A program made the translations under genes and the position numbers. Below, piece by piece: positions 38,235 through 53,712 of a stretch of 64,000 nucleotides of DNA. Numbering within the stretch: position 1 is the stretch's first letter; the number at the start of each line of letters is the position of its first letter. The stretch comes from an uncultured delta proteobacterium (GTDB taxonomy: Bacteria > Desulfobacterota > Syntrophorhabdia > Syntrophorhabdales > WCHB1-27). The stretch is taken from the NCBI GenBank assembly GCA_963810935.1, contig CAWEPK010000005.1:32001-96000 (forward strand), written 5' to 3'. The notes beneath the pieces were generated by a model. That model was not told the origin of the DNA, did no database searches, and saw only the letters and a program-made list of their open reading frames with translations.

Positions 38235-38358
38235 GGCCGAGGCGATTTTCGATGGAATTCGCGTTGCTTTTCGAAGGCGCGCGGCGGAGCGTACGTAGTG
38301 GGTACGTGAGCAAGCCGCGCCGAGAAAACGGCGCGAAGGCCGCGAAAAGCGCCCGGCC
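38235..38358 (-). repeat. Structured intergenic repeat family A, copy 2 (inverted)
   Basis: Shares CTCACGTAC...ACGTACGCT and TCGAAAAGCAACGCGAA with copy 1. Confidence 0.8.
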
Positions 38359-49178: not shown

Positions 49179-50849
49179 CTACCTATGTTTCTCTTTGCTT
49201 CTAAGCAAATCTTGTGCCCAAAGTTGTTTCATATGATCCTTGATTCGAGTTCTATTGTCAGCTATGATCGCCTGCCACTCTGATGATGCGGGTTTTTTCT
49301 TCCTAACGACAAAAAGGAACAGTTGCATATCATTACCCCAGGCATCCTGCAATTGTTTTACGCTCTCCGATAGGTCTGACAATGGAACTGCACGTTTATT
49401 GTTATCGATCAAGCAAGTCAAAGTCTTAAATTCCGTTCTTACCAGACGTGATGCTTCTCCAGATATCATCGCCGTTTCCTCATACCGTATGGCCGAGTAG
49501 CTCTTGAATTTGCCCCTATCAGTTTCGAGAATAAACTGCTCGTCAGTGAAAAGGACTTCCTTCAGGCGATGTTCGTCCCTAATAACGAGATGTTCATTCG
49601 CCTTTTCGACATAATCGTTGAGCAGCGGCCTTCTTGAGGACAAATTATCCCCATATACACCCTCACTTCTTATCAAAACCTTTAGTTCTTCATCGAAGGC
49701 ACGGTACTCACTTATGTTTTTGAAGACCGCTTTAGCGTACTTTTCCCTAAAAAGAACTATCCGAAGAAGTGGACATAATATTTCGAAATCATTTTTGAAT
49801 TCCTCATCGGTTTGCTGGCAGATGCGAAACGCCTCCCTCAGCTTCGACGTGAGAACGTCATCGTTGAAAGGAAGTTCATCTATGATATATCTGCTATAGT
49901 GAAAGTCGTCAATCTTAAGCAAATTTCCCAGAGGATGGCCAGGCTGTTTCGAATGCCTTAGCAACCTCATGATGATCTGCTCCATAGCCGTATCCGTCAG
50001 CACCACGTGCGGATGGTAGTAAAGCCATTTGTACAACTTGTAACGCTCAAGAAAGAAGGCTTCGACCGTGCTAAGGGCAGACATGGAGGGCATTACTTGA
50101 TAGTATTTTCCCGCATTATCCCAAAATAAAACCATTGACTCCACGAGTCGAGTAAGGTCGTATTGGCCAAATCCAATTCCACTCGCAATGCCGTCCCTGA
50201 TGATGAAGTCAGCGCGATCAGCGTCCACGTCCGACGAAACAATGCCATGAATTGTAGCAAATACGTTCAAAGGTTGAGGGCCAAAAATGTTTAGCAACTT
50301 GTCCTTGTAGTCATAGCCACCTTTCAATAAAGGATCAAGCTCCGCGTTATCTCGTATCAGACAGAAGGTCGCAAATTCATGAATGGGTGGCGCTTTTCCA
50401 TCAGCCTTCTCTGCAAAGCGGTTGAAGGCAGGATCTTTGCTATACAAATCAACCCCATCCTCTCCTATAACCGTCTCGCTCAGGTGGGACAGAGGTAAAT
50501 GACCAAGGTCATGGAGCAAGCCGGACAACCTTACGAGTTGCAAGAACAGTTTTTTACTTTCCTCCAAGTCCTTTCCGCCAAGGGACTTCTGACAAAGCTC
50601 AAGGAAGTGAAGCCGATCATCCTTGTCTGACATCTCTATTGCATAGGATGCCATTTTGCCCGCTAATTCCATCGTTCCCAAACTGTGTACGAAGCGATCC
50701 ACATGGTGAGATGGATACGTGAAATATGCGGTTGAGCTTTGTTTGATGTTCTGAAGCCGAAGGAAGATTCTGGTGTTTATGATCTCTGTCTCAAGGGGGC
50801 TTAAGTGTATATAATTATGTACAGGGTCTCGAATTACTTTCTGGGCCAT
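49179..50849 (-). CDS. HD-domain phosphohydrolase, SAMHD1/dNTP triphosphohydrolase-like
   Basis: IRDPVH, RL..IKQ, RF.HSLG, LLHDLGH.PLSH, HE, DADRAD...RD, YYHP. Confidence 0.88.
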   Translation of the reverse strand: MAQKVIRDPVHNYIHLSPLETEIINTRIFLRLQNIKQSSTAYFTYPSHHVDRFVHSLGTMELAGKMASYAIEMSDKDDRLHFLELCQKSLGGKDLEESKKLFLQLVRLSGLLHDLGHLPLSHLSETVIGEDGVDLYSKDPAFNRFAEKADGKAPPIHEFATFCLIRDNAELDPLLKGGYDYKDKLLNIFGPQPLNVFATIHGIVSSDVDADRADFIIRDGIASGIGFGQYDLTRLVESMVLFWDNAGKYYQVMPSMSALSTVEAFFLERYKLYKWLYYHPHVVLTDTAMEQIIMRLLRHSKQPGHPLGNLLKIDDFHYSRYIIDELPFNDDVLTSKLREAFRICQQTDEEFKNDFEILCPLLRIVLFREKYAKAVFKNISEYRAFDEELKVLIRSEGVYGDNLSSRRPLLNDYVEKANEHLVIRDEHRLKEVLFTDEQFILETDRGKFKSYSAIRYEETAMISGEASRLVRTEFKTLTCLIDNNKRAVPLSDLSESVKQLQDAWGNDMQLFLFVVRKKKPASSEWQAIIADNRTRIKDHMKQLWAQDLLRSKEKHR

Positions 50850-51146
50850 AATAGCTTCATATCAATGTTGCGAGCAATTAAGAACGGCATCAGCAGGCAA
50901 GCACAAGGTACATGGGCCTCTCCGTTACATGCGTTGTCTTCTCCATTTGTTTTGCGCCGATGCCCATACCTGCACACTTTCTATTATACTTACCACACTG
51001 AAGCAGAAAACAAAACATTAAAAGTTGTTGTTTTTGCTGGCCACCGCCTGTCATGCTCTTAATTATCTTGATAATAAGCGCTTTTCCGCCTCTGGGATTC
51101 CTGAAACTCCGGCGCTATTCTTGAGCACAGTGGATCGCCCTGGTTT

Positions 51147-51240
51147 TCACGACAACTGGCTTATCATCCTAGGCAACATCAGTGGGTCTTTGCATACCAT
51201 GAAATCCCATTTCCCCAGCCGTCCCCAGTTGTTCACTACT
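51147..51240 (-). pseudogene. Possible C-terminal remnant of a type III restriction (Res) subunit
   Basis: VVNNWGRLGKWDFMVCKDPLML then TGA; recognised from memory only. Confidence 0.4.
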
Positions 51241-51484
51241 ATGGGCCTTAACCTGTGAATTTAAAAGGGTTTTGGAAAGACTGTATAGTGAAATGTATAG
51301 GAGGGGTAAGTATGAAGATCGCAGAGATTGACAAGAATAAAACAGAGAAAATCTTTATCAGCATTGAGGAATACCGGAGTCTCTATGCTATAAAAGCCCT
51401 CTTCCACAGGGACGGATAAAAAGGCTACCCTCTTTCTCTTAAGCGATGGATGCACATCGCAAACCAAGGAAAGGGAGGTAGCCA

Positions 51485-52558
51485 ATGGAGATTGATAGGG
51501 TACAGGATTTTGTGGTTGAAGGTAAAGAGGTTTTTATCGGTTTGGAAGACTCAAAGAAGACCTGGAAGATAGCAGTTCGGTGCGACAGGATGGTGATCCA
51601 CCAGGTATCCATGGAGGCAAAGTATGTCTTGCTGAAGCAATACCTGAGAAACAGGTTCCCCGGTTGCACGGTCCATTTGATGTACGAAGCAGGCTTCAAG
51701 GGGTTCAACCTTCACGATCTTCTTGCCGAAGACGGCATCGACTGCGTGGTGATCCCTCCCCATATGGTGACGGAGCCGAAGGCAAACAAGGTTAAGACCG
51801 ATAAAAGGGATGCAAACCGTCTCGCCCGCATCCTGGAGAGCCACGATTACGGGGACCCCTGCTGTGTACCCGACAAAGAGAGGAGGGAGGACCGGCAGGT
51901 AAGCCGTACCATAATCGCCATACAGAAGGATATCATCGGTAACCGCAACCGCATCCGCAAGCTCCTCGACTTTCACGGGATCGAGGGCCCCTTTGCCGGT
52001 AAGAGCGAAGGGGCGAAAGGAGTTCGAGGGTCTTCGGACATTACCCCTGAGCGATCCCTTAAGGGCAGCTCTGGGCTCGCTTTTGACCATACTGGAGGAA
52101 CTGTGGGGCCAGCGTGCGGTCTTGAGGGACTATCTCCGGGGTCTGTGCAAGAAGGAGCGTTATAGAAAGCCCTACGAGGTCGCAAAGAGCATCCCCGGCA
52201 TAGGGTGGTTCACAGCCATCCGCCTGATATTAGAGTGGGGGAGGATCTCTCCCGTTTCGGAAGCGGGAAGAAGATCGCAGGCTTCGTGGGGTTGGGCTGC
52301 AGCGAGCATTCGACGGGCCAGACCGAACGGAAAGGTCGTATCACGGGCATGGGGTCGGGGTTCATACGGCATATCCTGGTCGAGAATGCCTGGATAGCGA
52401 TCAGAAAGGACCCGGCCCTGCTGTCCAAGTTCTCACGGGTATGGCGGTCGAGCGGCAGTAAGAAGAAAGCCATAGTGGCAGTTGCCCGTACTCTTATTGT
52501 GCGCCTTCGGGCCTGCATGCTTTCGGGCAGGCCTTATACGGTCGGAGTTATTAGATAG
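51485..52558 (+). CDS. IS110-family recombinase; frameshifts at about 52010 and 52240
   Basis: FIGLED, YEAG, KTDKRDA (RuvC-like), SIPGIG, GL...EHSTG, A.VAVAR. Confidence 0.9.
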
Positions 52559-52564
52559 GATGAG

Positions 52565-52720
52565 CCTGACGGAAGAGGACCTTAACGGAACAAGGGCGTA
52601 CAACGCCACGTACGCTGTATTAAAGAACGGCCCGGAGTATGTTGACGCCCGTTCCTCTTTTTTCGAAAAGCAGACACATGTGGGTTGGACCACGAATAGC
52701 AGCTTGCAAAGAACCTCCTC
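52565..52720 (+). ncRNA. Candidate bridge/seek RNA in the IS 3' non-coding region (limits approximate)
   Basis: Two stem/internal-loop/hairpin modules with matches to reconstructed target and donor. Confidence 0.65.
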
Positions 52721-53136
52721 TTCAAAAAGGCTCGCGCTTCGGCCGCGGACCTGTGTAAGGTCGTCGGCCTCGCGCTCGCTATCGGATATGTACTCATAAT
52801 AACAAGGGAAAGTCATGGACTGACCCATAAAGAAAAGGGGGTAGCAAAAGCCCGCTGGAAGAATCCGTTGACTTTTATCATAGCAGGCGTACGTTTGTAG
52901 ACCTTCGGGTGTACTGGAAGGATGAAGTGGGCGAGTATAAGTCGTCAAAGAAAGGAATTGCCCTTTACGATGAGACCATTGACCCGGTTATCGAGGCGCT
53001 CAAGAAAGCGAGTAAGGCCCTTGAAAAGTGAGACAACCTATTCCTCTCGCGCCCGCGTATATAAATCACGGAATCTATCCGTGGTCCCCTTCAACCGGCT
53101 GTATCCTAGTCCTATACCTCTCGCGTTTTTTGTCAT

Positions 53137-53712
53137 TTGCGCGTCAACCATCATCCCTATGCACCTTCAACGAAGCTTATCGAACGGTACCAAACCGACT
53201 GTCTTGAACAAGGGCATCAGAGAGATAAAGAGGGCAAGGTTGTACCAGGAAACATGCCAGCGACGATAAACCGGCATGTCGCTGTCATGAAACAAATGTT
53301 TACCAAGGCCGCCGAGTGGGAAATGGTCGAAGAAGAACGCTCAAAGATCGTCCACAAGGTGAAGCTGCTTGAAGAGAACAACAACAGGCTACGTTTTCTG
53401 TCCAAAGACAAATGCCAAGCCCTTGTGAAGGCTTCTGACGCGCACCTCAGACCCATTGTTATCTGTGCCCTTAATGCAGGGGTGAGAAATGGCGAAATCT
53501 TTGGGCTAAAGTGGGACGATGTAGACCTGAAGCACAGTTTCATCCTTCTACAAATCACAAAGAACGGGGAGGGCCGCGAGATACCGATCAACAGGACACT
53601 CAGAGCAACCTTCGATGACCCTCTACGCGGGAACGAAAGAACGGCCCAGGCGTCTCGATATCCCATACGTCTTCCAGGTATACAAAAACTATACAATCGG
53701 GAAGATGTATGA
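53137..53712 (+). pseudogene. Tyrosine recombinase (integrase) remnant
   Basis: ATINR, RFLS, ALNAGVRNGEI.GLKW.DVD, TKNGE.REIPIN; HxxR and catalytic Tyr region missing; abuts tRNA-Cys 3' end. Confidence 0.85.

Follow-up and report, generated by a model that had tools for sequence, protein, structure and literature searches.

Does the non-coding DNA downstream of the recombinase gene of an IS110-family element encode an RNA whose loops specify both the site of insertion and the ends of the element itself? The question is raised by positions 51380-52886 (+) of the window, i.e. the 64,000-nt stretch of DNA analysed here, where the original prediction had placed a candidate RNA-guided recombinase with recombinase, RNA, target and donor all recoverable from one locus. 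The interval is confirmed as a 1507-bp IS110-family insertion sequence of IS1111 type, and it is very probably one of four IS1111-group copies in which a two-loop bridge RNA in the 3' non-coding region (NCR) guides both target and donor. The evidence consists of the copies and their flanks, of a conserved and covarying scaffold, and of the covariation of all four guides with the flanks and the element ends; this covariation, seen in sequence comparison, supports the candidate as originally read. The mechanism class has been known since 2024, and specific to the present locus are the element, its target and a set of natural variants.

Element, copies and recombinase

A search with the whole element detected four copies in the genome from which the window is taken, at 99-100% identity, here designated L001 (the window copy) to L004; a copy of the RNA region standing alone was not detected in this search. 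The element ends are identical in all four copies, and CCGGAG lies directly to the left of each. In the window the left junction reads ...TACCGG-AG/TCTCTATG (left end at 51380-51387) and the right junction CATAGC-AG/GCGTACGT (right end at 52879-52886). All copies follow the pattern CCGG-AG/element/AG-(G)C(G/A)TACG, i.e. insertion is specific in site and orientation, with a 2-nt core at both junctions and no longer duplication. Empty sites in the genome carry a single AG.

As a correction to the original prediction, the window copy is a pseudogene. A private 2-nt deletion and a 1-nt deletion (Table 1) divide its recombinase gene among three frames, and three 1-nt deletions occur in its 3' NCR. 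The gene of L004 is frameshifted by one extra A, while the frames of L002 and L003 are open and give a 358-aa product (358-359 codons). Because of its two frameshifts L001 is unable to make the recombinase and could at most be mobile in trans. Its RNA region (52560-52740) differs from that of the other copies only at 52587 and by one base missing at 52725, so that the guides are the same in all four copies, the intact ones included. The frame-corrected recombinase envisaged earlier is not needed, since two sister copies are intact.

The two non-coding regions are of unequal length, 105 nt at the 5' side (51380-51484) and 328 nt at the 3' side (52559-52886). The longer one lies downstream of the recombinase gene, which agrees with the IS1111-type placement of the RNA that had been suggested. 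Subterminal inverted repeats of 12 bp, with a bulge of 2 nt, begin 3 nt inside either end, the left one being CTATG(CT)ATAAAAG and the right one CTTTTATCATAG; they were read directly, the ungapped arms being below the length limit of the automated repeat search. When the ends are joined, the -35 sequence TTGACT of the right end comes to lie 17 nt from the -10 sequence TATGCT of the left end, and the arrangement TTGACT-17 nt-TATGNT is found across the joined ends of all 11 elements examined.

The assignment of the recombinase to the IS110-family DEDD/Tnp proteins is supported by its sequence. The intact protein of L002 (P0001) matches PF01548 (DEDD_Tnp_IS110, N-terminal RuvC-like DEDD domain, E 1.6e-9), PF02371 (C-terminal Tnp domain, E 6e-18) and the NCBIfam equivalog NF033542 'IS110 family RNA-guided transposase' (173.6 bits, cut-off 140). 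In an alignment with 11 intact relatives E21/D22, E68, D106 and D109 are invariant, and T278-G279, located in GLGCSEHSTG, correspond to SG or TG. The assignment of catalytic residues follows the IS621 literature. Among the candidates scored, 1756 related proteins were found at E <= 1e-20, and the nearest protein other than the query itself is 78% identical. By the usual naming convention for insertion sequences a nearest relative at this identity denotes a new element, and the present one would thus be new with respect to the candidates scored.

ISCro4 is an IS621-like element with a 5' bridge RNA. Its transposase (PDB 9t56) is the best match among solved structures to a profile built from the 11 intact relatives (7e-12, residues 147-306), with only the C-terminal domain aligning significantly; the IS621 transposase follows at 7e-10, again indicating homology in the C-terminal domain. 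In the profile alignment GLT..Y.SG stands opposite the Ser/Thr-Gly motif (...YESG of IS621 and ISCro4) and KTD..DA opposite D106/D109, the KTDKRDA of the present recombinase aligning with KTDTVDA of IS621. A phmmer search of PDB with the single recombinase gave no match, and the relation to IS621 is therefore distant.

Table 1. Features of the window copy and its flanks, including the predicted parts of the bridge RNA (MFE, minimum free energy structure)
Feature	Position	Strand	Details
Left target half TACCGG and left AG core copy	51372-51379	+	Read directly
Insertion sequence, decayed copy	51380-52886	+	1507 bp, right-hand AG core counted in; 4 genomic copies
Left subterminal inverted repeat	51383-51396	+	CTATGCTATAAAAG; starts 3 nt inside the end
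-10 half of putative junction promoter	51384-51389	+	TATGCT, within left subterminal repeat
Predicted 5' UTR hairpin	51423-51483	+	GGCUACCCUCUUUCUC (51423-51438) pairs with Shine-Dalgarno region GGAAAGGGAGGUAGCC (51468-51483)
Recombinase gene, broken in the window	51485-52558	+	2-nt deletion near 52009, 1-nt deletion near 52235; intact 358-aa form in L002
Closing helix P1, 5' strand	52562-52579	+	Core GGAAGAGGA (52571-52579); MFE folding
Target-loop stem, 5' strand	52587-52607	+	GGAAC..GGGCGU-A-CAACG; 11 pairs, 6 compensatory, 99% of cells paired
Predicted target guide ('RTG' in recombinase-strand frame)	52608-52616	+	ACGUACGCU, ACGUACG plus CU for the core; complementary to top strand
Small inner hairpin of target loop	52617-52629	+	Consensus UGUG..CACG (columns 79-82 with 94-97); weak here
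Predicted target guide ('LTG')	52630-52637	+	GCCCGGAG, GCCCGG plus AG; identical to left flank and core
Target-loop stem, 3' strand	52638-52655	+	UAUGUUGACGCCCGUUCC; RNAalifold and pair counting
Predicted donor guide CAGACAC	52671-52677	+	Pairs with core G and TCTCTA of left end at 5/7; C:C mismatch at +2
Donor-loop hairpin	52679-52694	+	UGUGG-loop-CCACG; 5 pairs, 2 compensatory
Predicted donor guide AUAGCAG	52696-52702	+	Identical to right end ATAGC and core AG
Closing helix P1, 3' strand	52716-52733	+	UCCUCUUC (52716-52723); MFE folding
Conserved hairpin after the bridge RNA	52734-52775	+	GCGC-GGCCG-GACCU / AGGUC-CGGCC-GCGC; in MFE and centroid
3' tail complementary to 5' NCR	52830-52863	+	Three helices with 51396-51440, anti-Shine-Dalgarno segment included
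Right end	52868-52886	+	-35 TTGACT (52868-52873), repeat CTTTTATCATAG (52872-52883), then C and core AG
Right target half	52887-52894	+	GCGTACGT; read directly; continues PC4-like reading frame

The genome contains further members of the family: in total 16 matches to the IS110-family model were recorded. Among these are four copies of equal score (229.4 bits) with open frames of 316-318 aa, single matches whose frames are open over 339, 400 and 456 aa, and one fragmentary match, located on C13. The 400-aa match is on the minus strand at C17:103179-104252, some 300 bp upstream of copy L002.

Predicted two-loop RNA

Folding of the 328-nt 3' NCR gave z = -4.2, and 0 of 100 shuffled sequences fold as well. 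Structure prediction confirmed a fold into a two-loop RNA of about 170 nt (approximately 52562-52733), the length being given by the closing helix P1, which joins sequence 5' of module 1 (target loop) to sequence 3' of module 2 (donor loop). P1 was assessed by folding each sequence separately, because the shorter linker in this element makes a column alignment unsuitable. A long-range closing helix of at least 11 pairs occurs in the MFE structure of 18 of 20 sequences, with L005 and L012 as exceptions.

Related loci were taken from public genomes (n=32, recombinases 42-79% identical), and the RNA region of 19 non-redundant relatives with recombinases 48-79% identical was aligned. Of 16 scaffold pairs counted in this alignment 8 show compensatory changes, and 99% of the cells are paired; when the 3' partners were slid by 1-3 columns as a control, only 20-48% of the cells pair. 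All sequences quoted in the original prediction are present at their positions. Its stem of module 1, GGGCGU-A-CAAC (52594-52604) with GUUG-ACGCCC (52641-52650), and its hairpin of module 2, GUGG/CCAC (52680-83/52690-93), both recur in the RNAalifold prediction. The compensatory changes of the donor-loop hairpin lead from GG/CC to AC/GU in a distant clade. Two further helices, the small hairpin inside the target loop and a stem at the base of the donor loop, emerge from a wider alignment of 15 sequences. The AAGC/GCUU stem that had been drawn in module 2 is particular to this element and is replaced by a family basal stem, CUUU..GC.AG with UUGU.AAAG.

A scan of positions 51000-53300 against Rfam matched no family, the two hits obtained being at chance level (E 7.7 and 8.3) and on the opposite strand. 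The stretch from the stop codon to the RNA showed no internal promoter, as would be expected if the RNA is transcribed together with the recombinase gene. The hairpin following the RNA is G+C-rich, and as judged by eye it is retained in relatives with paired changes, e.g. GCAC/GUGC and GGCCA/UGGCC in L006.

Guides, insertion sites and element ends

The 5' guide of the target loop, ACGUACGCU, is the reverse complement of AG+CGTACGT, i.e. of the core together with the right flank. The original prediction had recognised it as the 8-nt sequence ACGTACGC (52608-52615), which is present, with its extent to be corrected to 9 nt including the core. ACGTACGC occurs five times on both strands of the 64-kb window, versus 1.1 expected, with the loop and the flank accounting for two of these occurrences. 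The proposed left match CCGGAG (52632-52637), covering flank and core, is likewise present. Together the two guides would specify the 15-bp site GCCCGG-AG-CGTACGT.

Within the own genome the 9-nt guide agrees with the right flank of L002 at 9/9 and of L003 at 8/9 positions at offset 0. At offset +1 it agrees at 8/9 positions with the flanks of L001 and of the relative L017, and at 7/9 with that of L004. At these three sites one additional base, a G in L001 and L004, separates the AG core from the right half-site, while the left guide stays in register; in L001 the pairing is shifted by one base because the window site has one extra G compared to the best-matching target. This one-base shift is a deviation from, and not predicted by, the simple pairing model. 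A 'GG' core was considered as its explanation and rejected, as the left junction CCGGAG/TCTC leaves no room for it. Among 23 right flanks the 9-nt guide agrees at offset 0 with at least 7/9 positions at 17, three more fit at +1, and three (L018, L028 and L030, all frameshifted) show no fit. A reading of the flanks suggests that DNA adjoining the right end of L028 has been lost, and such a loss would explain its mismatch. The 8-nt left guide agrees with the flank of L002 at 8/8 and with the other three own-genome copies at 6-7/8 positions; at least 5/8 positions agree at 20 of 22 left flanks, and only 2/8 in L013 and L018.

The target guides were compared with cognate and non-cognate sites in a permutation test with one site per element family, non-core positions only and 20,000 permutations. 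The cognate mean is 5.07/7 versus a non-cognate mean of 1.86 for the top-strand guide (14 families) and 3.58/6 versus 1.42 for the left guide (12 families), and none of the 20,000 permutations reaches the observed value in either case, figures that overstate the number of independent events because L008-L010 are related to each other, as are the six L020 copies. Thus the covariation expected from the original reading was found, the loops changing together with insertion sites and element ends, and relatives with different targets do not keep one and the same set of loop sequences, the observation that would have spoken against that reading.

The donor loop behaves in the same way towards the element ends. 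The 7-nt match ATAGCAG (52696-52702) to donor plus core, as first noted, is present and covaries with the right end: the match is 7/7 in 8 of 13 relatives, guide and end agree in 13/13 on the C or G that precedes the core, and in the distant clade both guide and end have GG at the core where the others have AG. For the left end the AGAC at 52672-52675 is present, while its proposed AGAC:GTCT register was rejected, as the relatives share another register with compensatory changes. In that register the core G and six left-end bases pair with a heptanucleotide that ends two bases ahead of the hairpin, making the guide by homology CAGACAC (52671-52677). At the three variable positions of this guide 23 of 30 combinations pair versus a permuted mean of 10.0 (1 of 20,000 permutations reaches the observed value), and at position +3 of the left end four pair types occur in the relatives, T:A, A:U, C:G and G:C, each of them complementary.

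Two other explanations were weighed against a two-loop bridge RNA. According to one of them only module 1 is a guide ('seekRNA'), module 2 serves as a scaffold for protein binding or processing, and the recombinase recognises the ends through the subterminal repeats. The conserved repeats at the element ends and the left-end donor guide, which in this element pairs at only 5/7 positions, would suit this explanation, as would the report that the 82-nt short seekRNA of ISEc11 was by itself enough for transposition, which was more efficient than with the long form (PMC11187229). Yet a mere scaffold does not account for both donor guides covarying with the ends, be it the 23/30 pairs against 10.0, the four pair types at +3, the 13/13 agreement on C or G at the right end or the shared GG of the distant clade, and we regard this explanation as improbable. 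The matches might alternatively be features of the DNA without any role in an RNA, such as internal copies of the target or binding sites of the recombinase, or part of a 105-codon ORF (52482-52799) that spans the guide region. The ORF was rejected, since the loops vary freely in sequence and contain indels of lengths not divisible by three. Such indels and loops, combined with stems that change in a compensatory manner, are the signature of an RNA and not of a protein or of a binding site in duplex DNA; the mechanism published for the family is also RNA-based, in the accounts of both groups (PMC11187229, PMC11208160). A DNA-level origin of the matches is accordingly very hard to credit.

With a two-loop bridge RNA guiding both target and donor, the cycle would begin with excision of the element as a circle, whose joined ends probably assemble the promoter described above (-35 TTGACT, -10 TATGCT). 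This junction promoter would drive a transcript containing the DEDD/Thr-Gly recombinase gene followed by the structured RNA of about 170 nt, with its two internal loops held by the closing helix. In the target loop ACGUACG-CU would pair with the top strand of AG+CGTACGT, and with the second guide specify GCCCGG-AG-CGTACGT; in the donor loop AUAGC-AG and CAGACAC would act likewise on the joined ends ...CATAGC-AG-TCTCTA.... Exchange of strands by the recombinase at the common AG core would then leave AG on both sides of the inserted element. That the RNA is made, is bound by the recombinase and directs the chemistry is what we infer by analogy from the published work on IS621 and ISEc11.

Known systems, further pairings and natural targets

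Durrant et al. 2024 (PMC11208160) give 93.0% as the share of IS1111 elements with a predicted bridge RNA. The seekRNAs described for IS1111-type elements lie in the 3' NCR, with the match complementary to the top strand located 5' of the other and the two overlapping in the target, and the 'long seekRNA' of the group is given as 145-170 nt (Siddiquee et al. 2024, PMC11187229), close to the approximately 170 nt predicted here. As far as that description goes, the present element resembles ISEc11, ISKpn4, ISPa11 and ISPst6 in the long NCR downstream of the gene, the order of the guides and their overlap in the target. It shares with the IS1111 group the subterminal repeats with a short terminal extension (7-17 bp repeats in the group), Ser/Thr-Gly in the C-terminal domain, the junction promoter and the site- and orientation-specific insertion (PMC11187229). 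It differs from the named elements, compared by their published description, in sequence and in its target GCCCGG-AG-CGTACGT within a REP-like repeat; its recombinase has 358 aa versus 330-350 aa stated for the family (PMC11187229), and in the motif GL-P----S(t)G the P of the consensus is replaced by C (GLGCSEHSTG). Another element, ISPpu9 of Pseudomonas putida (PMC12288879), comes from a different host and was set beside the present one by its description only.

With IS621 (PMC11208160; PDB 8wt6) the element shares, according to the published account, a target loop and a donor loop with two opposite-strand guides each and a 2-nt core in both; the core is part of every guide pairing in IS621 (PMC11208160). 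Read on the opposite strand, the core is CT, as the original prediction had pointed out, and the order and lengths of the guides (9 nt, then 6-8 nt) match those of IS621. Unlike IS621, the element carries its RNA 3' of the gene, in the right end instead of the left one, reads AG at the core of the coding strand and has longer subterminal repeats.

Taken with its sister copies, the locus represents a complete and internally consistent predicted system: the recombinase of 358 aa is intact, the bridge RNA measures about 170 nt, and the 15-bp target, of which natural empty sites exist, is defined, as are the donor ends. About 19 natural variants indicate which positions of the RNA are programmable. 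They also offer natural covariation evidence for a donor-binding loop in IS1111-type elements, a question that was left partly open when the short seekRNA of ISEc11 proved sufficient. The picture of how IS1111-type elements work is unchanged by this element.

Two further predicted pairings involve the NCRs. In the 5' NCR an anti-Shine-Dalgarno duplex of -21 to -27 kcal/mol is predicted in 7 of 10 relatives tested, and the 5' UTR hairpin may block translation of read-through transcripts. The same anti-Shine-Dalgarno segment has an alternative partner to the ribosome binding site (51468-83), namely the 3' tail (52830-52863). Pairing of the 5' NCR with this tail amounts to -37.4 kcal/mol versus -23.4 +/- 4.0 kcal/mol for shuffled sequences; it is kept with different sequences in the closer relatives and is weak or absent in L017, L018, L020 and L030. 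The complementarity could be an extended inverted repeat acting at the DNA level or an RNA pairing that competes with the hairpin. It is conceivable, though on balance improbable, that a 5'/3' switch allows translation of the recombinase only from complete transcripts with bridge RNA and 3' end and, jointly with this, that the left-side guide sets the cut while the long guide tolerates a 1-nt slip. Both the switch and the slip, if true, would lie beyond the published model.

As regards natural targets, the pattern CCGGAG-(G)-CGTACG has 13 sites in the own genome and a relaxed pattern has 27, and unoccupied sites include CCGGAGCGTACGT and CCGGAGGCGTACGT, four of each. Nearly all target sites fall within a REP-like repeat, in three of its subfamilies, each containing an imperfect hairpin, and L002, L003 and L004 are inserted in such repeats, with the window copy as the exception. 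L015, from another genome, is inserted a few bases upstream of ACCGGAGGCGTAC in a repeat of this kind, the position expected from its own guides. The repeat family, of at least three subfamilies, forms a hairpin around CCGGAG...(C/G)(A/G)TACG...GTA(C/T)GT(G/C)(A/G)GG, e.g. at 38285-38310 of the window (C5:70285). A similar repeat flanks the relatives L006, L007, L013, L014 and L015 in other genomes.

The window copy interrupts a small PC4-like gene containing ACCGGAGGCGTACGT. Joining the flanks with one AG, as in the empty site reconstructed earlier, restores an open frame, whose right half matches positions 17-51 of Pfam PC4 (E 1.2e-7). The reconstruction is borne out by this restored frame, by the three other copies with the same ends and related flanks, and by genomic sites that have this sequence and are unoccupied. 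In the window the element occupies an off-register site within a gene, the usual target being the REP-like repeat. Neighbours of the PC4-like gene are a 556-aa ORF (49179-50849, minus strand) with an HD-type motif HDLGH and a 191-aa ORF (53137-53712, plus strand) that resembles a truncated tyrosine recombinase, both judged by eye. L011 and L028 are apparently inserted in the transposase gene of another insertion sequence, their flanks translating to sequence that by eye is similar to an integrase core.
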